Below are positions 419-59,640 of a stretch of 64,000 nt of DNA, in pieces; position 1 is the first letter of the stretch, and each line of letters begins with the position of its first letter. Made by a program: the position numbers and the translations under genes. The stretch is from an uncultured Candidatus Saccharibacteria bacterium. GTDB taxonomy: Bacteria > Patescibacteriota > Minisyncoccia > Phycocordibacterales > CSBR16-119. The notes beneath the pieces were generated by a model. The model was not told the DNA's origin. It searched no databases and saw nothing but the letters and a program-made list of their open reading frames with translations. The stretch lies in assembly GCA_964581035.1 (NCBI GenBank), contig CAZOLO010000001.1, positions 7,190-71,189 of the forward strand. The letters run 5' to 3'.

Positions 419-494
419 GGTGGCTATGGTATAACGGTCATTACTTCGGTTTGTGGTACCGACAATTCGGGTTCGATTCCCGATAGTCACCCCA
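419..494 (+). tRNA. tRNA-His (anticodon GUG) with encoded G-1 and 3' CCA
   Basis: Hand-folded cloverleaf: acceptor stem gtggcta/tagtcac (one G-U), T-loop TTCGATT with stem tcggg/cccga, anticodon stem tcggt/accga, loop ttGTGgt, extra 5' G opposite discriminator C73, CCA encoded. Confidence 0.88.
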
Positions 495-575
495 TTCATA
501 TATATCAATGAGACCTTGTAATATAAGGTCTTTTTGATTGCTTGGATGATACCCCTAACAAGAAATCGAACTTTT
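487..575 (+). repeat. Intergenic repeat copy A (begins in tRNA-His 3' end; conserved hairpin agacctt..aaggtct + T-tract, then cacccctaacaRgaaatcgaa module)
   Basis: Near-identical to the copies at 3034, 4592 and 5558, aligned by eye. Confidence 0.75.
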
Positions 576-579
576 TGGT

Positions 580-1767
580 ATGATTTGTCTTATGGAAAAT
601 GAAAAATCAGAATATAAAGATCTAACTCAACACGAGCTTGAGGCACTAAAGAACGAATTTAATTTAGCAGATGCTCACACACACCAGTCTCAATCTGTAT
701 CACAGAGAAAAATTGTAGAAAGTCTGCCAGAAATTTGGTATGAATCTGAAAGACTAATGCAACACGAATCAGATGAACGTTTTATCAAGGCTTTTTTTAC
801 TTTTCATAAACAACCAAAAGCTCTGGAAACTCCATCAATGCTTGTTTATGCGTCATCTATTGCAATGGTTATTGCCTCTAATTATTTCAAGAAAAAAGAC
901 TTATCTGTCGCATTGATAAGTCCCTGCTTTGATAATCTTCCAGACATTATGAAGCATATGCAGATTCCTCTTGAGCCATTACTTGAAGAATGGATGCATA
1001 ACCCTGATGAGCTTTATGACAACCTTAAAAACAATGTTAAATCAGATGTTTTATTTATTGTAAGCCCAAACAATCCAACTGGATGGGAGCTCACAGGAGG
1101 GGTGGGGACAGACTTTAAGAAGGGATTTGAGGAGCTTATTAGATATGCAAAAGATCACAACAAGATTCTTTCTTTTGACTTTTGTTTTGCATCTGCAATT
1201 CTTCACGACGAAAATACGCCAACCTTTGATGTATATGGCCTCCTTGAAGAGTCTGGAGTTAGTTACGTTGCGTACGAGGACACAGGTAAAACCTGGCCTC
1301 TTCAAGATGCTAAAGCTGCCATCCTGAAATGTAGCAAGGATATTTACCCTGAACTGTACGATATTCATACTGCGTATCTTTTAAATGTTTCACCTTTTAT
1401 TTTGAATGTCATCACTGAGTACATAAATGATTCCATTAAAGATGGGGGAGATTCAATAATAGGCCTGCTTGAAAGAAATAAAGAGATAACAAAGAACTAT
1501 CTGGATGGTGAATATTTTGAAATGCATGAGCCTAAAATACCAATCAGCGTTGCTTGGTTAAAGATTAAAAATCCCAACATCAAAGCGACGGATCTTCAGA
1601 AAAAAATATACGAAAAAGCAAAAGTGTATGTGCTTCCTGGAACCTACTTCTTTTGGGATAACCCAGAAAAAGGAGAGAGGTACATAAGGCTCGCTCTTGC
1701 TCGTGATACAGAAATATTAGAAGGGGCAGTTAAGGCAATAGCAGAAATAATCCCAGATCTTAAATAA
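580..1767 (+). CDS. PLP-dependent aminotransferase (class I/II fold)
   Basis: SPNNPTG motif, candidate Lys in YEDTGKTW, C-terminal aminotransferase-like region; 395 aa. Confidence 0.6.
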   Translation: MICLMENEKSEYKDLTQHELEALKNEFNLADAHTHQSQSVSQRKIVESLPEIWYESERLMQHESDERFIKAFFTFHKQPKALETPSMLVYASSIAMVIASNYFKKKDLSVALISPCFDNLPDIMKHMQIPLEPLLEEWMHNPDELYDNLKNNVKSDVLFIVSPNNPTGWELTGGVGTDFKKGFEELIRYAKDHNKILSFDFCFASAILHDENTPTFDVYGLLEESGVSYVAYEDTGKTWPLQDAKAAILKCSKDIYPELYDIHTAYLLNVSPFILNVITEYINDSIKDGGDSIIGLLERNKEITKNYLDGEYFEMHEPKIPISVAWLKIKNPNIKATDLQKKIYEKAKVYVLPGTYFFWDNPEKGERYIRLALARDTEILEGAVKAIAEIIPDLK

Positions 1768-1768
1768 A

Positions 1769-2566
1769 ATGACAAAAAAAGGAGACATAAAAGGTTTATA
1801 TATTCCGATAATTACGCCTATGAAAAAGGGGAAGGTTGATCTTACCTCTATGGGTAGGTTGATGGATTTTGTTGATCCTTTTATTGATGGTTTTGCACCA
1901 TGCTTGTCTTCTGGGGAGGGTGATGTTTTAAATGATGAACAGTGGCAAGAGGTTGTTTCATTTGTTAAATCTAAAACCACTAAACCTATTTTTGTTGGAA
2001 TAAAAAGAGGATCAATTGAGGATGTATTAAGGTTAGCAAACGCTGCTAAAGAAATTGGGTGTGAAGGCCTTACAATTCCTGTCCCAAGTAATGATATAGA
2101 TGAAACAAAAAGATTTTTTGAAAAAATTACTTCTAACGTAGACTTACCAATTATTATTTATAATACGGAAACCAAAAACATAAAGACTCTCAGAGACCTA
2201 AAGGTCGTTGATGAAAATGAAAGGATTGTCGCCATTAAGGATAGCTCCATGAATAAAGGATTCTTTGAATCTGTTTGTTCTGCGCGGGTCTCAGGAGGGT
2301 TAAAAATGAACGCTTTGCAAGGATTAGAACACTTGTTGGATACTCCAGAGGGTTGTGACGGTTATTTGGTCTCACTCTTAAATGTGGAGCCAAAACTTAC
2401 AAAACAATACTTTCTTGAGAGGGGGGAAAAAGAACATCAAGAGATTATGGATAAGTTTTACGAGTATAACCTTGGCGGAGAATGGTTTGTTACATTAAAA
2501 GCACTGCTTTATGCGAGAGGTCTAATCTCTTCTGCTGAACAGGTTAAGCAAGAAATTAAAATATGA
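1769..2566 (+). CDS. DapA/N-acetylneuraminate-lyase family class I aldolase-like protein
   Basis: Pattern GLYIPIITP...VD...SSGEG...IYN...IVAIKDSS parallels the DHDPS/NAL layout including the Schiff-base Lys context; abuts the upstream gene. Confidence 0.5.
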   Translation: MTKKGDIKGLYIPIITPMKKGKVDLTSMGRLMDFVDPFIDGFAPCLSSGEGDVLNDEQWQEVVSFVKSKTTKPIFVGIKRGSIEDVLRLANAAKEIGCEGLTIPVPSNDIDETKRFFEKITSNVDLPIIIYNTETKNIKTLRDLKVVDENERIVAIKDSSMNKGFFESVCSARVSGGLKMNALQGLEHLLDTPEGCDGYLVSLLNVEPKLTKQYFLERGEKEHQEIMDKFYEYNLGGEWFVTLKALLYARGLISSAEQVKQEIKI

Positions 2567-3030
2567 AAAAATTTATAGACCACACTGTTTTTATGGGAAT
2601 GAATAGCTCTGATGATAAAGTTCGGATTGCTTGTAAAAACTTTTTTATCGAATCTTTAGAAAATAAAGAAAAGTTACATATGAGCCTTGAATCTGTTGGT
2701 ATGTGTGATGATATTGTTTGGGGCTACGAAAGAGAGGTGCAGGATAGTTATTATCCTTTTATGGACAAGTTACACACGGTTATGGATGTTGAAAGAATCG
2801 CCTATGGAGAAGAAGACATTTTAGGTATTAATTCAAACTCAAATCTTTCAATTACGGATATCCTGACGATAAACCAGTCTTTAAAAGGTATTCTATATAC
2901 TTTGAATAAAAAAATATTGTCTTCTGATAAAGAAAATATCATGTCGCCAGAGATGTCAAATGAAGAACTTGTTTTCCCTGATGGTTTGGAGGAAGACTAT
3001 CAAACCTCGCTTGTTTTAAGATATAAATAG
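2563..3030 (+). CDS. hypothetical protein
   Basis: 155-aa ORF; its start overlaps the upstream stop (ATGA), so likely the same operon. Confidence 0.4.
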   Translation: MKKFIDHTVFMGMNSSDDKVRIACKNFFIESLENKEKLHMSLESVGMCDDIVWGYEREVQDSYYPFMDKLHTVMDVERIAYGEEDILGINSNSNLSITDILTINQSLKGILYTLNKKILSSDKENIMSPEMSNEELVFPDGLEEDYQTSLVLRYK

Positions 3031-3033
3031 GTT

Positions 3034-3171
3034 TTTAGTTCTAAAACTTTCCACCAAACGACCCCATTCATATATATCAATGAGACCTTGTAATATAAGG
3101 TCTTTTTGATTTCTTGGGTTACACCCCTAACAGGAAATCGAAATAAGAGATTCGCTTAACGGCAGGGTTTT
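3034..3171 (+). repeat. Intergenic repeat copy B (agttctaaaactttccaccaaacgaccccattcatatatatcaatg + hairpin + cacccctaacaggaaatcgaa + ttaacggcagggttttt tail)
   Basis: Aligned by eye to copies A, C, D and E. Confidence 0.75.
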
Positions 3172-3174
3172 TGT

Positions 3175-3951
3175 TTACATTTTCTTTGATTTCTCCCAGA
3201 TAAAATCGAACCAGGTTGAAAGCATTATTGCCATGCTTTCATTCTCTATGAGTGTTCCAAATAGGTTATCCTTAAGAGAGTAAAGGGCAATCTTGTTATC
3301 CCAAATAATTATATTTGATTTCATTCTTATTTTACCTTTGGGTCTTTTTCTTAAGTCTCTTAGGTATTTTTTATCATTCTCAAAAACTTCACCAGGTAAT
3401 CTTTTTGAGTCAGGGCGAATACCTTTAAGTTTTTTGCTATCTCTAAATCGTTTCTCATGGTATTTAGTTATGAAATCCTTACCCAGCTTTTCTGCTACAT
3501 CTAATTCGGAACCTGCGATTCTAATAACACCATCCTCTGAATCAAGGCTCTTCCACAAAAGTTTTTGTAAATTATCAGCTCCCTCATAATAAGAAACTTT
3601 AGTTGTGGATGAAGTGTTGTCAGATTGTATATCCTCAAAGAAGGGGAGCAATGTATTAAGCTCATTTTTTAAGTCAGAGATATGGGACTCTTTATTCTCC
3701 AGAAGCTTAATAAGTTCTTGTGGTCTAACAGCCTCAAGTTTTTTCCCATAAGCCCCTCCTGTTGTATGACAGACCCCTTTCTTTTCCAGCTTTTTGGCTA
3801 TGTCATAAAGGTTCGTTCTTGTTGATTGGGTTCCTTTTGCCACGCTTGTCATCAGCTGGGGGCCTTTCTGTAGACAGTATAAATAAACACGAATCTCTTT
3901 CGTGGACAGTTCTAATTTTCCGAGAAACTGTTTTATTTTGTTGCTTTTCAT
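3175..3951 (-). CDS. TrmB-family transcriptional regulator
   Basis: N-terminal wHTH resembling TrmB (LELSTKEIRVYLYCLQKGPQLMTSVAKGTQSTRTNLYDIAKKLEKKG). Confidence 0.5.
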   Translation of the reverse strand: MKSNKIKQFLGKLELSTKEIRVYLYCLQKGPQLMTSVAKGTQSTRTNLYDIAKKLEKKGVCHTTGGAYGKKLEAVRPQELIKLLENKESHISDLKNELNTLLPFFEDIQSDNTSSTTKVSYYEGADNLQKLLWKSLDSEDGVIRIAGSELDVAEKLGKDFITKYHEKRFRDSKKLKGIRPDSKRLPGEVFENDKKYLRDLRKRPKGKIRMKSNIIIWDNKIALYSLKDNLFGTLIENESMAIMLSTWFDFIWEKSKKM

Positions 3952-4039
3952 GAAGTGTTGTCGAAAGTATTACGACATGTGTACATACTATTCTATATTC
4001 TATATATTGCAAGTAGATCAATCTTTAAAAAACAGAAAA

Positions 4040-4540
4040 ATGAAAAGGAGATTAATAGACGAGTATGTGCTTTATCCAGAATTATCGCAAAAATACTTCA
4101 AGCAGTATTTTGAAAGAGATACCAAAAGTCTTTATGAATTCTACAATTTAGATTTAACAGAAATTAAGGTGTTTAGAAATCTTCACATGTTAGAGGGCGT
4201 GGGTATGGAGTTAGAAATTCCAAAGAGGTTACAGGCTTTGAATAAAAATACCCATGGAGGATGCCTTTCTTTTATCTTTGACGCTGTTATGGGTGTCGGT
4301 CTGGGTTTTCCCATGCTTATGCCAGAAAACTGCATTATGCAAACACGAGAGATTACAAAGATTGAAATCTTTAAACCGGTACCCACAGGAGAGAAAGTTC
4401 TTATCGTAGCAGAGATTGTAAAGTCGGTGGAGAACAGGAAGTTCTGGGTGAGTTCAGAGATCAGGAACAAGCAAAGGGAGACCTTGGCTGTAGCTGAAGG
4501 TTTCTTTCTAAAGGTTCAGATAAATGACTTATTAGATTGA
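4040..4540 (+). CDS. PaaI/4HBT-type hotdog-fold thioesterase
   Basis: NTHGGCLSFIFDAVMG motif plus C-terminal hotdog pattern; start moved to internal ATG 4040 (MKRRLIDEY) because the track ORF start at 3902 overlaps the divergent regulator. Confidence 0.5.
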   Translation: MKRRLIDEYVLYPELSQKYFKQYFERDTKSLYEFYNLDLTEIKVFRNLHMLEGVGMELEIPKRLQALNKNTHGGCLSFIFDAVMGVGLGFPMLMPENCIMQTREITKIEIFKPVPTGEKVLIVAEIVKSVENRKFWVSSEIRNKQRETLAVAEGFFLKVQINDLLD

Positions 4541-4547
4541 AATATAA

Positions 4548-4575
4548 TAAAGCCCCTTCATATTTTGGAGGGGTT
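4548..4575 (+). terminator. rho-independent terminator hairpin
   Basis: cccct...agggg stem followed by TTTTT. Confidence 0.5.
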
Positions 4576-4591
4576 TTTAATTTGGCAATAT

Positions 4592-4701
4592 CTTAGTTTT
4601 AAAACATTCCACCAAACGACCCCATTCATATATATCAATGAGACCTTGAAACACAAGGTCTTTTTGATTACCCAGGTGGCACCCCTAACAGGAAATCGAA
4701 C
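4592..4701 (+). repeat. Intergenic repeat copy C (hairpin loop variant gaaacaca)
   Basis: Aligned by eye to copies A, B and D; contains inverted CCACC...GGTGG flanking the hairpin. Confidence 0.75.
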
Positions 4702-4834
4702 TAAAAATGTAGAATTTGTAATTTTTTGACAAATTTGCAAAAACATTTTTTGTTTGTTATTTTGTAAGTATAGACACCTTAGAACGTCATATATGGTGTA
4801 AAGGTAATTATTAGATTTAATTTTTTTAATAAAT

Positions 4835-5557
4835 ATGAAAACAAAAACAAAAGTTTTAACAAAAGAGGTAATGTCAGCAGTTGTTCTTATGTCATTCCTG
4901 CTTATACCACTCTTCGGAGCATCGGCTCAGATCGGATTGGATCTTAATGGAGAGACTAACTCTGAGACATCGGTAGGCGGAGACGGTGATGCCTCTATGG
5001 ATACAACATCAGAAGTTAACGTAAATCTTGACTCTAGCTCTAACACAAATACTAATAATGAAAATGGACTCACTGTTGAGGTTGATGGAGTAGATCTTTC
5101 AGTCGAATCATCATCTCAGGTAAATTCAGAAGCAGATCTTTCAGCATTTAGTTCTAATACTGAAATGAAGAACGAAAACATTGCAAAAGTTAAGGTTGGC
5201 GGTGATTCGTCAGGTGAAGCTGAGGCAAAGATTGTCTACAAGCATGATGCAAAATTCCTTGGATTTATTCCTGTAAAGATTAAATCTCGAACAACTGTTG
5301 AGTCAGAGACTCAGGGAGAAGTTAAGGTGCGATCAAGATTAGCTTGGTGGAGCTTCTTTGCAAGTAATATTGCATATAACAAATCAGACGTTGAGTCTCG
5401 AATTAAAAACAACGCACGAGTACAGGCCAGATCTCAAGTTGGACTTAATGCTAAAGCAAAAGCTGAAATTGCAGAGGAGGTCATTTCTGAAATTAAGGCA
5501 AGCACAGAAGCAGCTGCACAAGTAAAAGCTTCAGGTTCAGCATCAGTTGGATACTAA
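4835..5557 (+). CDS. secreted low-complexity (Ser/Thr/Asn/Glu-rich) protein
   Basis: N-terminal signal peptide (MKTKTKVL...LIPLFGASAQ), then compositionally biased sequence. Confidence 0.5.
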   Translation: MKTKTKVLTKEVMSAVVLMSFLLIPLFGASAQIGLDLNGETNSETSVGGDGDASMDTTSEVNVNLDSSSNTNTNNENGLTVEVDGVDLSVESSSQVNSEADLSAFSSNTEMKNENIAKVKVGGDSSGEAEAKIVYKHDAKFLGFIPVKIKSRTTVESETQGEVKVRSRLAWWSFFASNIAYNKSDVESRIKNNARVQARSQVGLNAKAKAEIAEEVISEIKASTEAAAQVKASGSASVGY

Positions 5558-5632
5558 AGTAGTTCTAAAACTTTCCACCAAACGACCCCATTCATATATA
5601 TCAATGAGACCTTGAAACACAAGGTCTTTTTG
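5558..5632 (+). repeat. Intergenic repeat copy D (left arm + hairpin; right arm replaced)
   Basis: Identical left arm and hairpin (loop variant gaaacaca); the downstream module differs from copies A-C. Confidence 0.7.
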
Positions 5633-5681
5633 AGGTGAGTCGCCATCTAGGTGGTAGAGGGCTCCCTGAGATAGGATTACT

Positions 5682-6236
5682 TTGATGTATAATAAAATTA
5701 TGAATCACGAACATCACAATCATTCAGGTATGAAAATTCATACCGAACAAAAGAAAGGTTTTAAACAGTTTATTCCACTTGTTTTTATGGCGGCAGTGGT
5801 GGTTGTACTCACTCTTGTTTTTAATGCAATCTGTCCACTAGAAGCACCTGTGCCAGTTATGAGAAATTTCATGGGTTCATTTTTCTTGGTCTTTGGACTC
5901 CTTAAACTTTTCAAGTTAAAAGATTTTGCTACTGCATATGCCAAGTATGATCTGCTAGCAATGAGATCAAAATTATATGCAAAAGCATATCCCTTTATTG
6001 AGCTTGCGTTGGCGGCGGTCTACTTGTTTAATTTTGAATTACTTATCACCAGCTGGGTGACTGCAGTTTTGATGCTTGTGGGTGCGCTTGGTGTGTATAT
6101 TAAACTTAGAAAGAAAGAAGAGATTCAGTGCGCATGTCTTGGAACCGTGTTTAAGCTGCCGATGACATATGTTACTCTTGTTGAAGACTTGCTTATGGCT
6201 GGCATGGCGATTTATATAATAATTAAATTAATTTAG
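5682..6236 (+). CDS. MauE/DoxX-like polytopic membrane protein
   Basis: Four or five TM segments with a C-terminal CACLG motif; family assignment is tentative. Confidence 0.4.
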   Translation: MMYNKIMNHEHHNHSGMKIHTEQKKGFKQFIPLVFMAAVVVVLTLVFNAICPLEAPVPVMRNFMGSFFLVFGLLKLFKLKDFATAYAKYDLLAMRSKLYAKAYPFIELALAAVYLFNFELLITSWVTAVLMLVGALGVYIKLRKKEEIQCACLGTVFKLPMTYVTLVEDLLMAGMAIYIIIKLI

Positions 6237-6241
6237 AAAAT

Positions 6242-6709
6242 ATGAATAAAAAAGTAACAAATATAATTTTAGGACTTATTGGAATAGGGGCTATTGTTCT
6301 TCTTGTTTGGGGAGGGGGTAATTCTTCGGTTGAAGAAAATCCAATTGTTTCAACAAGTGGAACAGAGGTTCCATGTCTTCCAAATGGTCACCAAGCTGTG
6401 GCTCAGCACATTCACCCAGTTATCAGCATTAGTGTTGATGGAGAAGAAGAGTTTATTCCAGCAAATGTTGGTATTGAGGGTCTGTGTATGAGAGAGGTTC
6501 ATACACATGACGCAACAGGGACGATTCATATCGAAACAAAAGAGGTAAACACGACATACACACTGCCTGACTTCTTTGCTGTGTTGGGAGCGCCTATGGA
6601 GCGAGAGGGGTACTCTATGACAGCAACAAAAGACGAGGAAGAGGTTTCTCCAGAAGAGCTGGTTTTCGAGGATGGCTCAATGGTAGAGGTTAGATACATT
6701 TCAATTTAG
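6242..6709 (+). CDS. membrane-anchored hypothetical protein with His-rich motifs
   Basis: N-terminal TM anchor; HIHPV...EVHTHDATGTIHIE motifs; two Cys residues. Confidence 0.45.
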   Translation: MNKKVTNIILGLIGIGAIVLLVWGGGNSSVEENPIVSTSGTEVPCLPNGHQAVAQHIHPVISISVDGEEEFIPANVGIEGLCMREVHTHDATGTIHIETKEVNTTYTLPDFFAVLGAPMEREGYSMTATKDEEEVSPEELVFEDGSMVEVRYISI

Positions 6710-6877
6710 TTCTAGCTCCTTCATTAAACGACTCAAAATAGACACAACAGTATATACATACCCCAGGACATCCTCTGTTTCGCTTTAAATTCAAAATAGG
6801 CGCACAGCTACTTTTTTCGCTCATCTTGAGCAAAGCTCAATTCACCTTAAAAACCTTGATTAACGGCAGGGTTTTTA
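6710..6877 (+). repeat. Degenerate repeat copy E ending in the ttaacggcagggttttt 17-mer
   Basis: agttcta...aaacgac left end is similar to copies B-D; the 3' 17-mer is identical to 3155-3171. Confidence 0.5.
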
Positions 6878-6900
6878 TTTTTTCTTGCTATACTTAACAA

Positions 6901-7659
6901 ATGGAAATATTAATTACATTACTGGTTTCGCTAGGTATTAATCTAACTATGTTTATACCGGCTTTTATATTTAAAACAGACAAATTAACCGACATTTCAT
7001 ATGCTGTTACCTTTGTTGTTGTTGCATTGTTTGGTTTATTATCTGGTGAAATCTCACTACTAAAAATTCTATATGTCGCAGCTATCGGTCTTTGGGCTAT
7101 TAGACTTGGCTCATATCTTCTTATTCGTATTCGAAAAATTGGTAGAGACAAAAGATTTGATGGCAAGAGAGATAATTTCTTTTGGTTTCTTCGGTTTTGG
7201 GTTTTGCAAGGTATTACTGTTTGGGTGGTGATGATACCGGGAACATATTTTCTAAATGGTTCAGTTTCAAAAAATCTTCTTTGGCCTATTTTGGGAATAA
7301 TTGTTTTTGTTGCAGGTCTTTTGATTGAGACTTTTGCTGATTTGCAAAAATATAGATTTATCAATAATCCTGAAAACAAAGGTCAGTGGATAGATTCTGG
7401 ATTATGGTCTATTTCTCGTCATCCAAACTATCTCGGGGAGATTATGGTTTGGGTGGGGCTCTATCTTTTTGCAGCTCCTTCGCTTGTCGGAAATACAATA
7501 TGGGTAGGACTAATTGGGCCAGGATTTATCGCTTATATGATTATTTTTGTTAGCGGAATACCTATTTTGGAAAAGGGGGCAGACAAGATGTGGGGTGATA
7601 ATCCTAGATACCAAGAATATAAAAATAGAGCAGGAATGCTGCTTCCAAAAATATTTTAA
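6901..7659 (+). CDS. DUF1295 / steroid-5-alpha-reductase-like membrane protein (ICMT/PEMT superfamily)
   Basis: SRHPNYLGEIMVWVGLYL signature; polytopic. Confidence 0.6.
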   Translation: MEILITLLVSLGINLTMFIPAFIFKTDKLTDISYAVTFVVVALFGLLSGEISLLKILYVAAIGLWAIRLGSYLLIRIRKIGRDKRFDGKRDNFFWFLRFWVLQGITVWVVMIPGTYFLNGSVSKNLLWPILGIIVFVAGLLIETFADLQKYRFINNPENKGQWIDSGLWSISRHPNYLGEIMVWVGLYLFAAPSLVGNTIWVGLIGPGFIAYMIIFVSGIPILEKGADKMWGDNPRYQEYKNRAGMLLPKIF

Positions 7660-8419: not shown

Positions 8420-9547
8420 ATGAGTAATCGATTGGATAAATTTTTCCCAATGCCTGATTTTTTAAGAATGCCAGCTATTGGTTTAGATATTTCTGATCAT
8501 GCTGTCAAATACGTGGTACTAAAAAATACTAACAAGGGTTTGGCTGTGGAGGCTTTTGGACGTAGAGATCTAGAAGAGGGTATTATTAAGCATGGGGTTA
8601 TCCAAGATGAGAAAAAATTAATTGTTATTTTGAATGAGGTTCAGAAAGAGACCGGATTACATTTTGCCAGGGTGGCAATACCAGAGATGTTGGTTTATGG
8701 GTTTAATGTAAATATTCCAAAGGTTAATCATGATCAGATAAAACAGGCAATTGAGTTTCAAATAGAAGATCATGTTCCTATTCAAAAAGAGTCTTTAATT
8801 TTTGACTATGAAATTCTTTCTGAGGGTTCTAGGTCATACTTTATTAAGGTTAATGCAATACTAAAGAAGACATTTGAAAGTTATAACGAGGCTTTGATAA
8901 ATAGTGGCTTGTCTGTTGCTAGTTTTGAGCCAGAGCCAGAGTCAGTTTTTAGAGCCATCAGGTTAAAAGACGGACAGAAAAATGCCATTGTTATAGATCT
9001 GGGGTCTAGAAGAACAAGCTTGTCTATTGTTGGAGGTGAAAAGATTATCTCTTCTTCCACTGTTGATTTCAGCGGGAATCTTTTGGCTAATATTATAGCT
9101 GGAGATGGATCGTCTTTTGAGGAATTTGAAAAAGCAAAAAAAGGAATGATCTTGGGTGATGATGAAAAAAGTGAAAAAATAAAAAAGCAGATAGATATTC
9201 TAAATATAGAAATAAAAAAACATTTTAATTACTGGAAAGAGCATTTAGATATAGAAGATTCTCTGCCTTCTGAAGATACCTCTGTTGAGGTATTTAATGG
9301 AAAAGAGGGGAGTGTTTTAGATATTGAAAAATCAGGAATGATACCCGTTATTTTGAGCGGGGGATCTGCACACTTAAGCGGCCTTCCAGAATATATGAGT
9401 AAAAAGTTAAAAACCAATGTGTCTTTTGCAGATATTTGGACACAAAAATCTGATTCTAAATCTGGAGGAAAAAACATCTTAAAAGATGGCTTGTTAATTT
9501 ACGCTACAGCAATAGGTTTAGCATTATCTGATTTTAATTATGATTAA
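8420..9547 (+). CDS. pilM: type IV pilus assembly protein PilM
   Basis: Actin-like ATPase pattern (GLDISDHAVKYVVL...); first gene of pilMNO-BC synteny. Confidence 0.75.
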   Translation: MSNRLDKFFPMPDFLRMPAIGLDISDHAVKYVVLKNTNKGLAVEAFGRRDLEEGIIKHGVIQDEKKLIVILNEVQKETGLHFARVAIPEMLVYGFNVNIPKVNHDQIKQAIEFQIEDHVPIQKESLIFDYEILSEGSRSYFIKVNAILKKTFESYNEALINSGLSVASFEPEPESVFRAIRLKDGQKNAIVIDLGSRRTSLSIVGGEKIISSSTVDFSGNLLANIIAGDGSSFEEFEKAKKGMILGDDEKSEKIKKQIDILNIEIKKHFNYWKEHLDIEDSLPSEDTSVEVFNGKEGSVLDIEKSGMIPVILSGGSAHLSGLPEYMSKKLKTNVSFADIWTQKSDSKSGGKNILKDGLLIYATAIGLALSDFNYD

Positions 9548-10088
9548 TCTTCAATCGCAACAATCAAAGAAAGAGATAGCTAGGCAATATCATATGCGGG
9601 TTGTTTCTGTTGTATTTTTTCTTATAGCTAGTTTTTTAGTTCTTAGCTTTGCACTACTACTCCCTTCATATTTTATTGCGTTAGAAAAAGAGAATGCTGT
9701 AAAATCTTTTGTTGAAGAGATTCAGAGTGGAGAAGAGTTTCAAAAGAACAAAGAACTCAATACTCTTTTGGGTGATACAAAATTAAGGTTGGATGTATTC
9801 GGTAATTTAGATAAGTCTTTTGTCTCTGAATCTATAATAAAACCACTTCTTGATGAGGTATACATTCAAAACAATAAAATAAAGTTAAACTATATTAAAT
9901 ACTCTTCAGAGTCTAGATCTTTAGGGATAAGAGGTGTGTCTGCATCTAGAGATAGCCTTATTGATTTTGTGGAAACAATCCAAAAAAATGACAGATTTAG
10001 CAACGTAGAGGTTCCAGTTTCAAGTTTTGTGCAAAATACGAATATTATATTTGAAATGACGATGGATATTAACGAAGACTCATTATGA
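9540..10088 (+). CDS. pilN: type IV pilus assembly protein PilN
   Basis: Single N-terminal TM; position after pilM; overlapping start. Confidence 0.55.
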   Translation: MINLQSQQSKKEIARQYHMRVVSVVFFLIASFLVLSFALLLPSYFIALEKENAVKSFVEEIQSGEEFQKNKELNTLLGDTKLRLDVFGNLDKSFVSESIIKPLLDEVYIQNNKIKLNYIKYSSESRSLGIRGVSASRDSLIDFVETIQKNDRFSNVEVPVSSFVQNTNIIFEMTMDINEDSL

Positions 10089-10645
10089 AAAGAGAATTTA
10101 TAAAACCTAAATATAAACCAATAGTAATCTTGATAACCTCATTTTTAATGATAGTGATATTAGTCATAGTTTACTTTGGAGTTTTTGGAAAAATAAAACA
10201 AAAGACAATAGAAAGCAACAAGATTTTGTCTGAAATTCAAAATCAAAATAACTCTTTGGAGAACTTAAGAAAACAAGAGAGGTTGATTTCTGCTATTACA
10301 AATGAAAAAGACAAATTATTCTCTTTGTTCATTGATAAAAATTCGGTAGCCAGACTATTCGAAGAGCTTGAGTCTGTGGCTGAAGAGTCTGGGGTTGATT
10401 ACAGTGTTGTTTCGGCTAGAGAAGGTTTTAAGAATAACTCGGGTTTAACGATACAAGTAGCAGCTAATGGTTCATTTAAGGGTATTTATGAGTTCCTGCT
10501 TGGTTTAGAAGATCTACCTTTTGGGTTGAATTTAAAGAATGTTGTGATAGAAGCTAGATCTGAAGATTTTCAAGGGGAAGCACCAGACTACCCATGGGGC
10601 AGCTTACTTGAATTAGAGATTATTAGTTATTTGCAAGATAAATAG
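10085..10645 (+). CDS. pilO: type IV pilus assembly protein PilO
   Basis: Single TM plus coiled-coil; synteny. Confidence 0.5.
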   Translation: MKREFIKPKYKPIVILITSFLMIVILVIVYFGVFGKIKQKTIESNKILSEIQNQNNSLENLRKQERLISAITNEKDKLFSLFIDKNSVARLFEELESVAEESGVDYSVVSAREGFKNNSGLTIQVAANGSFKGIYEFLLGLEDLPFGLNLKNVVIEARSEDFQGEAPDYPWGSLLELEIISYLQDK

Positions 10646-10649
10646 ATCC

Positions 10650-10961
10650 ATGAATCTTATCAACAAAAAAACAGAAAAAATCAAAGGATTTAAGAACGGG
10701 TCTCTAAGACAGCTATTTTATTGGAGAATAGTCACACTGATTATGTTATTGGGTGTTGTTGGGATCTCTTCTCTAAGCCTTTATGTATTTATTCAGATAG
10801 ACAAAGAAAGTATTTTTACAGGAGAGTCTGATTTATCTACATCTGAGGAATTAAAAATAGACATAGATAGGCTAGAGGAAGTGATTCAGTATTTTAACGG
10901 GAAAGATGAGAGAAGGGGCTCTCACGAAACCCTTCTTTTAGAAATTAAAGATCCGGCATAA
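10650..10961 (+). CDS. small membrane protein in the PilP position
   Basis: 103 aa with one TM; synteny only. Confidence 0.3.
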   Translation: MNLINKKTEKIKGFKNGSLRQLFYWRIVTLIMLLGVVGISSLSLYVFIQIDKESIFTGESDLSTSEELKIDIDRLEEVIQYFNGKDERRGSHETLLLEIKDPA

Positions 10962-10997
10962 TCTAGTTTAATAGAATGATATTATATAAGAATTAGT

Positions 10998-12749
10998 ATG
11001 TATATTAATGATGAACAGTTAACAAAATATTTAATAGATAAAGATCTTATAAAAGAAAAAGATCTATCTTTATCTATTGAAAATGCTGCAAAGCACAATG
11101 TTCCTCTAATAGAGGCCTTTGTTCATGCTGGGATTTTTTCAGAAGAAAAAATCAGAGAAATTGTTGCTGAGATAAAAGGGGTTTCTTTTATTGATTTGTC
11201 TGAGATTAAAATAGAGCAGACGACCCTACAAAGAATACCTGAGTCTATTGCAAAAAAACACAACATAATTGCCTTCAAAGAAGAGGGGGGTGTTCTTAGT
11301 GTTGCGACCCTTGATATAGATAATTTGCCAATCATAGACTCAATTAGAAAATCAACAGGTCTTAAGATAGTTGTTTATGTTACAAACGCTACTTCTATGC
11401 AATCAGCGTTGGTTCAGTATAGAAGAAGTTTGAATATAGAGTTTGACGACATTATTAAAAAACAGGTATCAACCCTTAACTTGAAAGAGGGGGTTGATGA
11501 GAGTGATCTGTCTCCAGCTGAATTAAAAAAGATGGCTGAAGATCTTCCGATTATTAAGATAGTGGACACATTGATCTCACATGCAATCCTGCAGAATGCA
11601 TCAGATGTACACATAGAGCCAGAGGAAAATTCTCTTATTATAAGATTTAGAGTGGATGGAATCTTGCATGACGCCATGTCTCTACCAAAACAGATTACCC
11701 CAGGAGTTATTGTAAGAATAAAAGTTTTGGCTAATTTGAGATTAGATGAGAAGAGGCTTCCACAAGATGGAAGATTTAAAACCGTTTTCAATAGTCAGGA
11801 TGTTTCTTTTCGTGTATCAATACTACCAACATATTTTGGAGAAAAGGTTGTTATTCGTATTTTGAGGGAGAGTGCTCATGGGTTTAGTTTGGAGGCTATT
11901 GGTTTACACGGAGAAGGCCTAGAGCATGTTCATGAGGCAATGAGTCAGAAAACTGGTTTGATATTGGTATCTGGTCCAACTGGATCGGGTAAGACTACGA
12001 CCTTGTACACAATGTTAGACATTTTGAATACTACAGATGTTAATATTTCAACTGTAGAGGATCCAATTGAATATCAAGTTGATAGAATTAATCAAACTCA
12101 AGTTCGTTCAGATATTGGGTTAACATTTGCAGCTGGACTTAGGTCTCTGCTTCGTCAGGACCCAGACATACTTATGGTTGGTGAAATTAGAGATAAAGAG
12201 ACAGTCTCCTTAGCTGTTAATGCTGCTTTGACTGGTCACTTGGTTCTCTCTACCATCCACACAAACTCTGCGGCGGGGGTTATACCTAGGATGATTGACA
12301 TGGGAATTGAAACATTTCTGATCACATCAACTATTAAGACAATATCTGCTCAAAGGCTAGTTAGGGTACTTTGTGATTCAAAAGAAAAATATCACCTTTC
12401 GGATGAGGAAAAATCTAAACTTGAAAAGGTTGTTGATCTAGATAAAGTTTTGTCCTTTTTGAAAAAAGAAAAAATAGTAAAAGCTAAAGATACATGGAAG
12501 ACAATATATTTTTACAAAGCAGTTTCAACACCGGAGTGTGAAAGTGGGTATTCTGGTCGTATTGGTATTCATGAGGTCTTGCACTTAGATGAACCTATTA
12601 AAAAGCTGATCACTAGTGGAGCCACAGAGTCTGACATAGAAGAGATGGCTGTAAAGGGTGGTATGCTTACTATGATAGAAGACGGTATATTTAAAGCTGT
12701 CCAAGGAATGACTACAACAGAGGAGGTTTTAAGAGTTGTTTCAGATTAA
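10998..12749 (+). CDS. pilB: type IV pilus assembly ATPase PilB (GspE family)
   Basis: Walker A VSGPTGSGKTTTLYTML, Asp and His boxes, N-terminal GspII-like domain. Confidence 0.85.
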   Translation: MYINDEQLTKYLIDKDLIKEKDLSLSIENAAKHNVPLIEAFVHAGIFSEEKIREIVAEIKGVSFIDLSEIKIEQTTLQRIPESIAKKHNIIAFKEEGGVLSVATLDIDNLPIIDSIRKSTGLKIVVYVTNATSMQSALVQYRRSLNIEFDDIIKKQVSTLNLKEGVDESDLSPAELKKMAEDLPIIKIVDTLISHAILQNASDVHIEPEENSLIIRFRVDGILHDAMSLPKQITPGVIVRIKVLANLRLDEKRLPQDGRFKTVFNSQDVSFRVSILPTYFGEKVVIRILRESAHGFSLEAIGLHGEGLEHVHEAMSQKTGLILVSGPTGSGKTTTLYTMLDILNTTDVNISTVEDPIEYQVDRINQTQVRSDIGLTFAAGLRSLLRQDPDILMVGEIRDKETVSLAVNAALTGHLVLSTIHTNSAAGVIPRMIDMGIETFLITSTIKTISAQRLVRVLCDSKEKYHLSDEEKSKLEKVVDLDKVLSFLKKEKIVKAKDTWKTIYFYKAVSTPECESGYSGRIGIHEVLHLDEPIKKLITSGATESDIEEMAVKGGMLTMIEDGIFKAVQGMTTTEEVLRVVSD

Positions 12750-12752
12750 AAT

Positions 12753-13973
12753 ATGAAATTTCATTACAAAGCACAATCAAAAATAGGTGTCGTAATAGAG
12801 GACACTATCGAAGCTGAAAGCAAAGAAGCTGTCATAGCAAAGATTCGTGAAAACGGAGCAACTCCTGTGTTTGTTGAAGAAAAAGGGAATAAATCTCTTA
12901 ATATATCTATACCATTTATTGATAATTTGATAGGTGGTATAAATCTGCAAGATAAAGTTATTTTTGCCAAAAATCTTGCAAGAATGCTTAATGCGGGCCT
13001 ATCAACCTCAAGAGCTTTAAGAGTTCTTAAGAAGCAAACTACAAAAGAGTCTTTTAGGGTTGTCCTTGATCATCTGATCGCTGACATAAATAATGGAGAA
13101 TCATTAAGTGATGGTCTAGCTAAGTACCCAAAAGTATTCTCTCCTATGTTTATAGCGATGGTCCATGCTGGAGAAGAGTCAGGTAATATTGTGGGTAATC
13201 TACTAGAGATATCAGCCCAACTAGACAAAACATCAAAGCTTAGAAAAAAAATTAAAGGGGCAATGATTTATCCTGGAGTTATTCTAAGTGCTATGGTGAT
13301 AATAGGTGTATTGATGTTTATCTTTGTTGTTCCAACACTTCTTGCAACTTTTAAAAGTCTAGACATGGAGCTTCCAGCGAGCACTCAACTGATTATATTC
13401 CTTAGTGACAGTATTCAGGCACACACATTTCTTTTCTTAGTTTCAATAGTTGGTTTTTTTGCGGGCCTTATTACAATATTCCGATTGAAATCAATGGAAA
13501 AATACATTGATTTCATAGTTTTAAAAATACCCGTAACTGGAACTATAGCTATAGAAATGAATACTGCGATAGCAACAAGAACCCTTTCTTCTTTACTAGA
13601 ATCTGGTCTTTCTATAAGTCGAGCTCTTACTATCACAAAAGAAGTTCTTCAAAATACTCATTATAAAAAATCTTTAGAAGAAGGTATAAAAAGCATTGAA
13701 AAAGGAGGTCAACTATCCAAAATTTTCGAAGAAAGAAAAGATCTGTATCCCGTCATGATGGGTGAGATGGTCGAAGTTGGAGAAGAGACCGGTAAGCTGG
13801 TAGATATGCTAAAAGATGTTGCTGATTTTTATGAGTATGAAGTGGATAGTAAGACAAAAAATCTGTCGACAATTATAGAACCAGTTCTGATGCTTCTAAT
13901 TGGCTCTGCGGTAGGGTTCTTTGCCGTTTCGATAATGTCACCTATGTATTCTGTTCTTGAGGGTATTTCTTAA
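12753..13973 (+). CDS. pilC: type IV pilus platform protein PilC (GspF family)
   Basis: Two T2SS-F repeats, polytopic, follows pilB. Confidence 0.8.
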   Translation: MKFHYKAQSKIGVVIEDTIEAESKEAVIAKIRENGATPVFVEEKGNKSLNISIPFIDNLIGGINLQDKVIFAKNLARMLNAGLSTSRALRVLKKQTTKESFRVVLDHLIADINNGESLSDGLAKYPKVFSPMFIAMVHAGEESGNIVGNLLEISAQLDKTSKLRKKIKGAMIYPGVILSAMVIIGVLMFIFVVPTLLATFKSLDMELPASTQLIIFLSDSIQAHTFLFLVSIVGFFAGLITIFRLKSMEKYIDFIVLKIPVTGTIAIEMNTAIATRTLSSLLESGLSISRALTITKEVLQNTHYKKSLEEGIKSIEKGGQLSKIFEERKDLYPVMMGEMVEVGEETGKLVDMLKDVADFYEYEVDSKTKNLSTIIEPVLMLLIGSAVGFFAVSIMSPMYSVLEGIS

Positions 13974-13982
13974 TTTATAATT

Positions 13983-15776
13983 ATGTTTTTTATATCACAT
14001 GGCGAGATAAATAAATTCAAGGCTGGATTTAGCCTTATGGAGATGGTGGTGGCTATAGCCATTTTTTCTGTTCTTTCTATTTCTATATATCAAGGATATG
14101 CTCAAATATTTAAAACAACAAATTTTCTTAAAACAAAAACAGTTGCTACAAATCTAGCTAATGAACAAATAGAAATAATAAGAAACCTCCCTTATGACAA
14201 TGTAGGTACAATCGGAGGTATACCTTCTGGTGTTGTAGACCCTTCTCAGGAGATTACTAGGGAAGGTATAGATTTTGTCGTATTAACCACTATTAGAAAT
14301 ATCGATCTTCCATTTGATGGGACACTAGGTGGATCCCCAGATGATCTTTCTCCTGCGGATAATAAGCTTGTTGAAATAGAAATTCAATGCGCTTTGTGTC
14401 AGAATTTTTCGAACTTAGTATTTAACACAAATGTTGCTCCTCAAAGCTTAGAGAGTCTTTCTACAAATGGGGCATTGAGAATAAATGTTTTTGATGCAAA
14501 TGGAGAAGATATCTCTGGGGCTAATGTCTCAATTGTTAATAGTGGTATTTCTCCTAATATAGACATAGACGATGTTACTGGTAACAATGGAATACTTACC
14601 ATTGTGGACGCACCTCCATCCTTTGAATCTTATGAGCTACTAGTTACAAAAGGAGGCTATTCAATGGATCAAACTTATATCTCAGACATTAGTAACCCAA
14701 ACCCCATTAAACCTCATGTAACAGTGAGCCAGGGCCAGATTACTGATGTTAGTTTTATTATAGATGAAACAAGTACGATGAATATCTCTAGTGTTACTGA
14801 TACTTGCCAAGCAGTTTCGGCTTTTGATTTTGATCTTGTGAGTAGTAAGTTAATTGGAACAAACCCTGATGTTCTGAAATATGACAGTAATCATTCTACA
14901 AATGGAAGTGGTCTTCTTTCATTGAGTGATATGGAGTGGGGAACATACACCGTAAATACAACAGATTCAAGCTATGACGTTGCTGGGTTCAATCCCTTTA
15001 ATCCACTAACTATAACTCCGGGAGTAGATCAAGATTTAAAGATTACTTTATTCCCGAAAGATTCCCCTACAACTTTGTTTACCATAAAGGCGCAAGGTAC
15101 AGGAGATCCAATTTCTAATGCTGTGGTTAGTCTACAAAAAACAGGGTTTAATAAAACATTTCTTTCTGGTCAATCAGCAAAAACACAAACTGATTGGTCG
15201 GGTGGTCAAGGTCAAGTAAACTACTCAGATCCAACTGTGTATTCATCAGATGATGGAGGCATTAATGTTAACAATCCTATTGGTTCGATTCTTCTTTTTG
15301 AAGACATAGATGGATATGTCTCATCAGGAGAGTTGATTTCATCTACTTTTGATCTAGGTCCAGGAGTTACTTATCATGATTTGTCTTGGTCTGGGGACAT
15401 ACCAATTTCAACAGACATTCAAGTTCAGATAGCTACAACAAGCTCTGGTACCCCTACAGATTTCATTGGTCCAGATGGAACATCAAGTACATTTTTCACG
15501 TCAATTCCAACAGATATTCCAGCTATTTCAGATGGAGATAGATACTTTAGATATAAAGTATCTTTATCAACTTCAAATCCTTTGTTCACACCAACCTTTG
15601 ATAATTTAGAATTTAATTTTTCTGGTAACTGTGTTGCTCCGGGTCAAATCGCTTTTCAAGGATTATCTAATGGAACATATACTTTAACGGTAAACGCTGA
15701 TGGTTATCAAGAATTTAGTCAGGATATTGATTTAAATAATGCTTGGCAGGAGGTGTTAGTAGAGATGGATGAATAA
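13983..15776 (+). CDS. large prepilin-type protein (597 aa) with class III signal peptide
   Basis: KAG|FSLMEMVVAIAIFSVL prepilin cleavage/methylation motif; long Ser/Thr-rich C-terminal region. Confidence 0.65.
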   Translation: MFFISHGEINKFKAGFSLMEMVVAIAIFSVLSISIYQGYAQIFKTTNFLKTKTVATNLANEQIEIIRNLPYDNVGTIGGIPSGVVDPSQEITREGIDFVVLTTIRNIDLPFDGTLGGSPDDLSPADNKLVEIEIQCALCQNFSNLVFNTNVAPQSLESLSTNGALRINVFDANGEDISGANVSIVNSGISPNIDIDDVTGNNGILTIVDAPPSFESYELLVTKGGYSMDQTYISDISNPNPIKPHVTVSQGQITDVSFIIDETSTMNISSVTDTCQAVSAFDFDLVSSKLIGTNPDVLKYDSNHSTNGSGLLSLSDMEWGTYTVNTTDSSYDVAGFNPFNPLTITPGVDQDLKITLFPKDSPTTLFTIKAQGTGDPISNAVVSLQKTGFNKTFLSGQSAKTQTDWSGGQGQVNYSDPTVYSSDDGGINVNNPIGSILLFEDIDGYVSSGELISSTFDLGPGVTYHDLSWSGDIPISTDIQVQIATTSSGTPTDFIGPDGTSSTFFTSIPTDIPAISDGDRYFRYKVSLSTSNPLFTPTFDNLEFNFSGNCVAPGQIAFQGLSNGTYTLTVNADGYQEFSQDIDLNNAWQEVLVEMDE

Positions 15777-15778
15777 CT

Positions 15779-16393
15779 ATGTTTAATAATACTAAAAATA
15801 CAAAAGGGTTTACCTTAACAGAGATACTTGTTACTTTGGGTATTTTTAGCGTATTAGCTGTTGGCGCAACAAGTCTTCTTCGTGACTCATTTATTTTTAA
15901 GGGAATAGCTCAAACTGGATTAAATTCTATAGATGAGGGTAGAAAGATACTTAGGCCACTTGTTGGTGAAGTAAGAAGCGCTTCTCAGTCTCACAATGGA
16001 GCATATGTTATAGAAAATGCATCAGCTGAAACTTTTATATTTTATAGCGACATAGATAATGATGATTTGATTGAAAGAGTTAGATATTTCTTAGATGAAG
16101 ACACCCTTAAAAAAGGGGTAACAGAACCAAGTGGCAGCCCTCTATCTTATGATTTAAATAACGAAGAGATATCTTGGGTTATTCAAGATGTTGCAAATGG
16201 CGCTAGCCCAGTCTTTGAATATTTTGACACCAATTATGACGGAACTACAGACCCACTGGTTCAGCCTGTTTCTTCTGGAGATGTTCGATTGGTAAAGATA
16301 ACTATTATTATTGACCATGATCCAAACAGGCCGCCAGAAGCTGTAGAGCTTTCTACTCAGATGACCATTCGTAATCTAAAAGATAACTTATGA
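15779..16393 (+). CDS. prepilin-type minor pilin
   Basis: KG|FTLTEILVTLGIFSVLAV motif. Confidence 0.65.
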   Translation: MFNNTKNTKGFTLTEILVTLGIFSVLAVGATSLLRDSFIFKGIAQTGLNSIDEGRKILRPLVGEVRSASQSHNGAYVIENASAETFIFYSDIDNDDLIERVRYFLDEDTLKKGVTEPSGSPLSYDLNNEEISWVIQDVANGASPVFEYFDTNYDGTTDPLVQPVSSGDVRLVKITIIIDHDPNRPPEAVELSTQMTIRNLKDNL

Positions 16394-24399: not shown

Positions 24400-24816
24400 T
24401 TTGGGTCATATAAAAAAGGCCATCCGATTGGATGACCTTCGTTTCTCTATATATTTTGGGCCGGAGCCATACTAAGTGTGTGGGCGCTCTTTGTCCATTC
24501 TTGCCCAGTTACCCTTGAGTAGCGAGGGTCTCTTTTCAAAATAAGATTTCTGAGGAATCCTATTTTTGATAAGTATGACCGAGGCCTCTATCGGGTTCAA
24601 TATGCCAGATTGAGTATTTAGACTATGATCTGGGTAATTTTGAATAAAAGATTTTTCTGAGCTGCTATATGTTGAGCCCATAATTAATGTAAAGATAATT
24701 ACATTTATGATCTCCATATGGCTATGTTCGATTTCGTTACAGACTAACGCAGCTGCCACTTATTGTCAAATACAGTCTATGTTTTAGATGGTTTGGTTGT
24801 CTGCTATAATAGTCTT

Positions 24817-39643: not shown

Positions 39644-39699
39644 GACTTGCAAAGGCAGGTCTTTTTTATTAATGTAAGAAAAAACATAGATCTTGCAAT

Positions 39700-40263: not shown

Positions 40264-40319
40264 TTAAAGACTTGCAAATGCAAGTTTTTTTTATTAATGT
40301 TGATTAAATTCATAATTAT

Positions 40320-58821: not shown

Positions 58822-58824
58822 AAA

Positions 58825-58845
58825 CCGCCCCAGATTTTGGGGCGG
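58825..58845. terminator. bidirectional terminator
   Basis: ccgccccagattttggggcgg between convergent genes. Confidence 0.6.
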
Positions 58846-58850
58846 CATAA

Positions 58851-59393: not shown

Positions 59394-59508
59394 AGTTAAG
59401 ATTTTATGTATACGAGTTTTTGACAGATTACCATGTTATTAAATAGGTGTCAAGTAATATGCTGCTACAAAAAGATTAAATAGAAACCGAGATGCATCAT
59501 TATTGTTT

Positions 59509-59537: not shown

Positions 59538-59640
59538 CCTTTTTGTCTGTTCGATGCGCACTGATAGCGTATCGCTTAGGTTCGAGACAGACATAGCCTT
59601 TAAATAAAGGCTTTTATAAAATAAATTTAGAATTATAAAA

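Follow-up and report, generated by a model that had tools for sequence, protein, structure and literature searches.

The 64,000-nucleotide stretch analysed here, referred to as the window, represents positions 7,190 to 71,189 of contig CAZOLO010000001.1 (assembly GCA_964581035.1) from an uncultured Candidatus Saccharibacteria bacterium and contains an array of four small gene blocks, termed cassettes, between a tRNA-His(GUG) gene and a gene for a DUF1295 protein. The tRNA gene, which anchors the array, is the only one in the window and was located by ARAGORN at 420-494 on the plus strand (Rfam tRNA score of 56 bits); as judged from the sequence, it starts with G-1 at 419, opposite C73, and encodes its CCA end. 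The cassettes are delimited by five copies of a repeated element (junctions A to E), all of which are oriented like the tRNA gene, even where they adjoin genes of the minus strand (3175-3951 in the window and 15539-16783 in the related locus L019, see below), and each of which comes after a gene block. The repeat core, CCCCATTCATATATATCAATGAGACCTTG (29 nt), is present in four exact copies starting at 490, 3062, 4620 and 5586, all on the plus strand, and no further copies with up to three mismatches were found in the 64 kb, with none expected from shuffled sequences. A repeat search of the window returned a single 112-nt family with the members 463-574, 3035-3146, 4593-4704 and 5559-5670. The core is preceded by a 27-nt left arm, GTTCTAAAACTTTCCACCAAACGACCC, which occurs only at 3038, 4596 (with two mismatches) and 5562, and is followed by a right arm, CACCCCTAACARGAAATCGAA, which is common to junctions A to C and missing from D. 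Junction A is therefore composed of tRNA end, core and right arm, junctions B and C of left arm, core and right arm, and junction D of left arm and core, so that A reads as attL-like, B and C as attP-like and D as attR-like. This is the layout expected from att-site insertion, in agreement with the original prediction, which had proposed the tandem insertion of related units from five elements next to tRNA-His, with a left arm shared by B to D and a right arm shared by A to C. The prediction had also taken the core for an att-like duplication starting within the tRNA end, which applies to the last six nucleotides: identity between tRNA and junction begins at A489 (ACCCCA, 489-494), so just these six tRNA positions are common to both. 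Since the duplicated part of the tRNA amounts to no more than 4-6 nt in the window, most of the supposed att identity is the 3' flank of the tRNA gene.

The individual junctions differ in their completeness. Junction A (489-584, plus strand), in which the tRNA 3' end takes the place of the left arm, consists of an AT-rich near-palindrome, CATTCATATATATCAATG (493-510), an intrinsic terminator (510-538, predicted at 510-532), the right arm (538-575) and an extended -10 motif, TGGTATGAT (576-584), with a promoter-like site preceded by TG at 555-584; the right arm includes the sequence AATCGAAC, the inverse of the tRNA T-loop sequence GTTCGATT (8 of 8 positions, at a spacing of 85 nt). Junction B (3035-3176, plus strand, profile score of 60.9 bits) contains the left arm (3035-3064), the core with palindrome and terminator (3061-3109) and the right arm (3110-3146), and ends with TTAACGGCAGGGTTTTT (3156-3172), a remnant of the 3' half of a terminator of a second type. 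Junction C (4593-4702, plus strand, 56 bits) combines the left arm with two mismatches, an identical core (terminator loop AAACAC) and the right arm, and junction D (5559-5633, plus strand, 60.3 bits) combines a left arm without mismatches with the core; downstream of it, at 5666-5693, a promoter-like site contains a TATAAT hexamer. The fifth copy, junction E (6710-6880, plus strand), forms the distal end of the array and is a decayed junction: its left arm is conserved at about 19 of 27 positions, it is expanded by about 95 nt, its AT-rich middle is scrambled, and it scores below the threshold of profile R1, a sequence-only profile of arm plus palindrome. It still carries a type-2 terminator (6848-6877), and it shares the 17-nt TTAACGGCAGGGTTTTT without any difference with 3156-3172 and with junctions of related genomes. 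The DUF1295 gene (6901-7659, plus strand; 62-79% amino acid identity in relatives) marks the right border, since conservation among these relatives resumes with this gene beyond the array. Terminators are present in four of the five window junctions, and promoter-like sites, identified by consensus matches only, precede cassettes 1 (with the extended -10 motif) and 4; terminator and promoter of a junction probably insulate each cassette transcriptionally.

The gene content of the cassettes was assigned from Pfam matches. Cassette 1 (580-3030, plus strand) is a three-gene operon for an aminotransferase (580 or 592 to 1767), a DHDPS-family aldolase (1769-2566) and a DUF6190 protein (2563-3030), the order of which recurs in unrelated organisms (e.g., L041:2908-5465); the closest DUF6190 homologues are only 51-55% identical, one of them being labelled Thaumarchaeota. 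Cassette 2 (3175-4573) contains genes on both strands, a TrmB-family regulator (3175-3951, minus strand) and a 166-amino-acid open reading frame (ORF; 4040-4540, plus strand), and has its own terminator (4554-4573). Cassette 3 (4835-5557, plus strand) consists of one gene for a 240-amino-acid protein, and cassette 4 (5700-6709, plus strand) of genes for a MauE-family membrane protein (5700-6236) and a 155-amino-acid protein (6242-6709). The aminotransferase, aldolase, TrmB and MauE labels of the original prediction are borne out by Pfam, which also identifies the DUF6190 gene, while no match at E ≤ 0.01 was obtained for the 166-amino-acid protein (its supposed thioesterase) or for the 240- and 155-amino-acid proteins. 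The cassette 3 protein was found in the same context and with the same gene order on 22 contigs; those compared at the DNA level are 100% identical to the window, and the set is uninformative on the dynamics of the array.

The same locus was retrieved from relatives via homologues of the VKOR and DUF1295 proteins of the window. By amino acid identity of VKOR, the loci rank as L017 (77%), L019/L020 (74%), L022/L023 (68%), L004 (63%) and L044 (48%), to which L027, L025 and L039 were added (DUF1295 identities of 71, 78 and 65%, respectively). The closest relatives are metagenome-assembled genomes of Paceibacteria/Parcubacteria, and the window sequence itself is also present on contig JAACPS010000003.1 of GCA_009995395.1. 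VKOR and tRNA-His are found at the same place in every relative locus that reaches that far, the junction is present in seven of eight related genomes, and L017, L019, L022, L004, L027, L025 and L039 are all still flanked by VKOR-tRNA-His and/or DUF1295. Each genome has a gene content of its own from the tRNA up to DUF1295 (or to a flavodoxin-like gene), and the cassette proteins of the relatives show no similarity to those of the window; the variable content between constant flanks that had been anticipated is thus seen as a nearly complete difference between the repeats. Taken over eight genomes, about 17 junction copies, all downstream of tRNA-His and in one orientation, accompany about 20 cassettes of 0.9-2.6 kb each.

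The left arm is conserved at all 27 positions in window junctions B and D, in L017, in L004 and in junction B of L019, shows one, four and six mismatches in junctions C, D and E of L019 and four in L027, is diverged in L039, and is interrupted or decayed in L022 and L025. For scale, the nucleotide identities between these loci are 67-74% for the VKOR and DUF1295 genes (47% at third codon positions), about 72% for the spacer between VKOR and the tRNA, and 92-93% for the tRNA gene. An identical arm beside unrelated cargo in four species points either to strong constraint or to a shared mobile pool. Profile R1 was searched over 344 kb (the window plus the related loci) and its matches were confined to array junctions and the 3' flanks of tRNA-His, without exception on the strand of the tRNA, so the elements do not behave as generic genome-wide repeats within this range, a possibility that the original prediction had named as its refutation. 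Since R1 finds no match in L044, the relative with 48% VKOR identity, the system seems restricted to one clade. Scans of genome, viral and metagenome collections with an exact 23-nt core and of metagenome and viral collections with the cross-species arm gave no matches; from the core scans it follows that the source species is not among the GTDB representatives. A search of viral contigs with the tRNA-His 3' end yielded as sole match a complete tRNA-His gene within an unrelated phage tRNA cluster, which was rejected.

A comparison of the junctions across genomes shows a common order of the 27-nt arm, the sequence ACCC(C)A corresponding to the tRNA end, and a variant of the tRNA-His 3' flank of one or another genome. 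The first part of this flank is an AT-rich palindrome with a TATATA centre, represented by ATTCGTATATACGAAT in L019 (a perfect 16-mer), by CATTCATATATATCAATG in L017 as in the window, and by TGTATATACA in L004. It is followed by an intrinsic terminator belonging to one of four types, all of which are found both beside tRNA genes and within arrays in various combinations. The right arm follows terminator types 1 and 3 and corresponds, inverted and in diverged form, to the left arm or to the T-arm of the tRNA, as in junction C of L019, where TAGTTCTAA and TTAGAACTA match at 9 of 9 positions at a spacing of 90 nt. The left arm itself is about 60% similar to the 3' half of the T-arm/acceptor region of the tRNA in a hand alignment. 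The tRNA-His gene encodes CCA in the window (489-494) and in L017 (…CACCCCA); in L004 (11184-11190), L019 (11127-11133) and L022 it does not and reads …CACCC followed by A. The joint between arm and core mirrors this difference in each genome's own tRNA-His gene.

Many junctions terminate in TTTGGTATGMTT, an extended -10 motif located about 8-12 nt ahead of the next ATG, a placement which suggests leaderless or short-leader cassette mRNAs. In the window, the corresponding TGGTATGAT overlaps the first ATG of cassette 1 (580), while the second ATG (592) corresponds to a 391-amino-acid gene call on other contigs; the arrangement at 576-594 suggests that the mRNA of cassette 1 is leaderless. The same extended -10 motif is found ahead of cassette genes in L004, L017, L019, L022 and L027. 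Rfam returned the tRNA as its sole match and none for the junction, and folding in the manner of an attC site gave only the terminator hairpin consistently: an end-to-end stem was obtained for junction C of L019 (z about -5) and window junction A, and not for window junctions B, C and D. The junctions are thus unlike canonical attC sites, as proposed at the outset, in that R''/R' boxes and a consistent element-spanning hairpin are absent, and a new recombination-site family may be involved.

The arrays exhibit a polarity with respect to the tRNA. Counted outward from it, the arms show 0, 1, 4 and 6 mismatches in L019, the last boundary being without an arm, and 0, 2, 0 and about 8 mismatches in the window. 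Few cassettes are found in more than one genome, and these are mostly distal: cassette 5 of L019 is similar to cassette 1 of L022 and to a short ORF in L025, and an NHL-repeat protein of L022 is similar to L025 4417-5889. TRNA-proximal cassettes are unique to each genome with the exception of cassette 1 of L022, which adjoins the tRNA and therefore departs from the pattern of distal sharing. Moreover, an intact palindrome next to the tRNA goes together with intact arms (window, L017, L004 and L019), and the palindrome is missing where the arms are decayed or absent (L022, L039 and L044). In L027 (340-600), a GC-rich insert of about 120 nt without an Rfam match lies right after tRNA-His between the two copies of a direct repeat of about 65 nt (about 85% identical), which takes in the terminator along with 17 nt from the 3' end of the tRNA; judged by its sequence, this is a classical integration scar at tRNA-His. 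In L039 (5195-5260), a partial copy of the 5' part of tRNA-His (GGTCCTTATGGTGTAA...) precedes the intact gene at a distance of about 50 nt.

The locus looks like a gene-capture hotspot, and the explanation which we tentatively favor, at slightly less than even chances, is a variable island at the tRNA-His 3' end that has grown by successive insertions of recombinase-less cassettes beside the tRNA, with the responsible enzyme encoded elsewhere. The att-like layout, the polarity, the fixed orientation, the species-spanning arm, the association of palindrome and arms and the scar in L027 are best accommodated by this reading of sequential insertion, although the enzyme for cassette insertion is inferred and not observed. 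The confinement of the repeat to the array, the changing cargo between constant flanks, the recurrence of the same terminator types beside tRNA genes and inside arrays, and the presence of the cassette 1 operon in unrelated organisms also count in its favor. According to this model, an incoming or circular cassette would carry arm, palindrome and terminator as its site and would be joined to the tRNA end and the palindrome by a site-specific recombinase, the gene for which would reside at another genomic locus or on a helper element. Each fresh insertion would move the older cassettes outward from the tRNA, the older junctions would decay, and homologous recombination among junctions would shuffle their halves. 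A more specific version is possible, if distinctly less probable, namely an undescribed cassette-capture system of candidate phyla radiation (CPR) bacteria which would be integron-like in its working yet unrelated to integrons, the tRNA-His 3' end plus palindrome acting as the equivalent of an attI acceptor, the arm of about 27 nt plus palindrome as the cassette site, and the enzyme being provided from elsewhere in the genome.

Several observations weigh against insertion by a site-specific enzyme. No integrase, resolvase or transposase was recognised by Pfam among the approximately 50 window ORFs scanned (the scan left out 42761-43303, 44687-48091, 49456-50034, 50066-51937, 56554-57234 and 57300-57977), in line with the original prediction of a window without integrase; the families found comprise housekeeping functions, a set for type IV pili or type II secretion (T2SS), RecA and aminoacyl-tRNA synthetases. 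The same prediction had suspected an integrase upstream of position 1, where the 10 kb read contain no recombinase and instead encode VTT, PilM, a kinase, a pseudouridine synthase, L19, a P-type ATPase, a Na/Ca exchanger and VKOR. The gene tables of the fetched flanks show no recombinase beside the array of any relative, and no integrase or recognisable fragment of one was seen in the cassettes of the eight genomes. Tblastn searches with E. coli XerD and lambda Int also found no match in the window or the related loci, while Xer homologues in two distant Patescibacteria loci, L011 and L013, served as positive controls. Neither a circular form nor an empty site nor a rearrangement within a population was seen in the loci and contigs compared, so that the proposed genome with DUF1295 directly following tRNA-His was not encountered among the relatives. 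A foreign composition of the cassettes is not apparent either, their overall GC content and that at third codon positions (GC3) falling inside the range of the window except for the GC3 of 4040-4540 (z = 3). Finally, the tRNA is duplicated over just 4-6 nt in most junctions (ACCCCA in the window, ACCC in relatives), and left palindrome half, right half and terminator type occur in many combinations; a unique, sharply defined site of crossover is not discernible in the junctions, and homologous recombination would give the same picture.

The only recombinase seen in the window ORFs scanned, the 10 kb upstream or the fetched flanks of the related arrays belongs to a separate island. L022 carries between its tRNA-Arg(tct) and tRNA-Val(tac) genes a 7.1-kb island (674-7368) with a large serine recombinase (5800-7368; Resolvase, Recombinase and Zn_ribbon domains) and three unannotated ORFs. 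The two tRNA genes are merely 40-760 nt apart in the lineage of the window, L004, L017 and L019, and the clade therefore has a second variable site associated with tRNA genes.

The main rival to sequential enzymatic insertion, which we consider unlikely though by no means negligible, is DNA uptake followed by RecA-dependent homologous recombination, with the junctions serving as terminator-promoter insulators that provide portable homology and with blocks being replaced or added by crossovers in the junctions or in the flanking core genes, without any site-specific enzyme. It would account for the mosaic of junction halves and terminator types without a single breakpoint, for the lack of a recombinase near any array and for the unremarkable composition of the cassettes, and the window indeed encodes RecA (62489-63589) as well as a type IV pilus/T2SS-like set (8420-17826). 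Homology alone leaves unexplained why the 27-nt arm is more conserved than the tRNA, why the fusion occurs exactly at ACCC(C)A, and why there are a single orientation, a gradient of decay and a link between intact palindromes and intact arms; in addition, repeats of 75-110 bp are short substrates for RecA. A smaller probability still is assigned to the idea that the blocks are leftovers of separate integrase-bearing islands or prophages at tRNA-His and the junctions old attR scars. Such a course would correspond to the standard formation of tRNA islands (PMC4383910; bioRxiv 10.1101/2020.12.28.424599), and the partial-tRNA scar of L027 and the decay of distal junctions are consistent with it, but about 20 cassettes of 0.9-2.6 kb without an integrase or a fragment thereof render it unparsimonious. 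The identical arm beside unrelated cargo in different species rather indicates one shared site than independent elements, and at least two cassettes open with a promoter-like site and contain complete genes.

A further candidate, regarded as quite unlikely, is a cis-acting RNA or regulatory module (a 3' untranslated region, small RNA or insulator) duplicated between operons, to which the turnover of genes would be unrelated. The junction terminators, many of them combined with an extended -10 motif, would suit such an element, as would the pyrimidine-rich arm (TTTCCACC / CCTCCACC), which resembles an anti-Shine-Dalgarno sequence; against it, the arm is not retained at every operon and instead decays outward from the tRNA, occurs beside minus-strand genes (junction E of L019 and window junction B) and is not found in any other intergenic region of the window, and the junction lacks an Rfam match and a conserved fold past the terminator. 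That a small repeat of the type of miniature inverted-repeat transposable elements (MITE) or repetitive extragenic palindromes (REP), with terminal inverted repeats such as TAGTTCTAA...TTAGAACTA, landed here several times by chance appears very improbable, despite the perfect inverted repeats of 8-9 nt spaced about 85-90 nt apart at the outer ends of some junctions and the end-to-end fold of L019 junction C: all of the approximately 17 copies are found downstream of tRNA-His and share a single orientation, the rest of the 344 kb being free of them, many junctions have no right arm, and the left end of the first copy is the tRNA itself. The cassettes were also considered as transposons with terminal inverted repeats and this idea was rejected, the best inverted match being located at the outer ends of a junction and not at those of a cassette, and the right arm being missing from many junctions. 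The least credible reading is that of a genuine integron or of a CALIN, in which clustered attC sites occur without an integrase. The ordered array, the repeat after each cassette and the polarity of insertion would fit, but no IntI was found in the window ORFs scanned, in the 10 kb upstream or in the related loci, and the junction ends, as read from the sequence, are GTTCTAA...TTAGAAC or end in AATCGAAC, with GTT on the 5' and AAC on the 3' side and a purine/pyrimidine pattern at variance with RYYYAAC...GTTRRRY. The junctions are conserved in sequence, whereas attC sites conserve structure, no consistent bottom-strand hairpin is formed, and promoter-like sites ahead of at least two cassettes (1 and 4), together with the junction terminators, do not agree with mostly promoterless cassettes transcribed from a common Pc promoter. 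On these grounds the array is not an integron, and the original prediction is upheld in part.

Among known systems, integrons of the sedentary chromosomal and CALIN types nevertheless share with the array the order of small repeat-ended cassettes, the insertion next to an anchor, the distal decay and an enzyme encoded off the cassettes, and differ by their IntI, attI and Pc, by repeats with R''/R' boxes that are neither sequence-conserved nor terminator-bearing, and by lacking a tRNA anchor. Xer-dependent elements, such as IMEXs (integrative mobile elements exploiting Xer) at dif and the pdif modules of Acinetobacter plasmids, are devoid of recombinase genes and use the tyrosine recombinase of the host, with pdif sites alternating in orientation. 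They resemble the array in their short dyad sites with an AT-rich 6-bp centre and in forming tandem arrays at a single chromosomal site. A dif-like site spans 28 bp, with 11-nt arms for XerC and XerD around a 6-nt centre. The palindrome of the array has a TATATA centre, but its arms (ATTCG/CGAAT and CATTCA/TCAATG) appear not to match the XerC/XerD consensus, the site is a tRNA gene and not dif, the junctions are all direct, and no Xer gene was found in the window. Minimal mobile elements of Neisseria are hotspots of replacement via flanking homology in naturally competent bacteria, without an internal conserved junction repeat, a tRNA anchor or polarity; the array is like them in placing different gene blocks between the same conserved flanks without a dedicated enzyme.

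In its mode of operation the array comes closest to two known systems, the tRNA-seeded islands that arise by successive integration of tycheposons and the arrays of cis-mobilizable elements (CIMEs) that arise by tandem accretion. Tycheposons encode a tyrosine recombinase as well as replication genes, extend over many kb and are associated with partial tRNA copies of about 40 nt (bioRxiv 10.1101/2020.12.28.424599). As in the tycheposon islands of Prochlorococcus, the array occupies a fixed position beside a tRNA gene, would arise by successive integration displacing older elements, has repeats at its junctions and decayed remnants deeper inside, and differs in cargo among close relatives; unlike tycheposons, its units are only 0.9-2.6 kb long, contain no recombinase and are joined via 4-6 nt of tRNA, a conserved non-tRNA arm and the downstream flank. 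The criteria for tRNA islands in the Islander description (PMC4383910) include a location at an intact tRNA 3' end and variable content among relatives, both of which are found here, as well as an island-encoded integrase, which no cassette of the eight genomes contains, and a tRNA fragment at the far end, which amounts to ACCCCA or ACCC only and is clear, at 17 nt, in L027. CIMEs are described as decayed integrative and conjugative (ICEs) or integrative and mobilizable elements (IMEs) for which a related helper ICE is known (ICESt1/ICESt3 family; PMC5704250). In terms of structure only, the cassettes correspond to CIMEs, since each is bounded by att-type repeats and lacks integration and transfer genes; in both cases, tandem units adjoin the 3' end of a target gene and could be moved by a helper integrase in cis or in trans. 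The array differs from CIMEs in that no helper element or integrase is seen in eight genomes, the units are far smaller, and there is no sign of conjugative descent. The literature yielded no description of such arrays in CPR bacteria, which is weak evidence of novelty.

Some further features were noted elsewhere in the window. Cumulative GC skew and gene orientation flip at 58800-61600, next to an S6-SSB-S18 operon and close to the RecA gene (62489-63589, minus strand), and this region may represent a replication terminus or origin; no dif site was recognised near the flip at 59-61 kb, and the idea of a connection with dif was dropped. Two tandem paralogues (39700-40263 and 40320-40997, within the region 39642-40997) each contain a Bac_DnaA_C helix-turn-helix and are each preceded by a nearly identical, terminator-like repeat of 34 nt (39642-39675 and 40267-40300). 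The ORF at 24763-25638, which combines an Mrr_cat restriction-endonuclease domain with an AF1548-like C-terminal domain and a weak ATP-cone match, is conserved in position in L022 and L025.

CPR bacteria (Patescibacteria) have tiny genomes with few recognised mobile elements, and their gain of accessory genes is poorly understood. The tRNA-His array represents a locus conserved over several species which turns over small gene blocks bounded by a sequence-conserved, tRNA-fused junction. If a trans-acting enzyme drives it, the array would constitute a compact means of gene capture, functioning in the manner of an integron with different parts, and would also yield a defined short DNA site, which could be tested and reused. 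Even if the blocks are exchanged by homologous recombination, the locus would provide a specific hotspot and, with profile R1, a marker for the flow of accessory genes in uncultured Paceibacteria.

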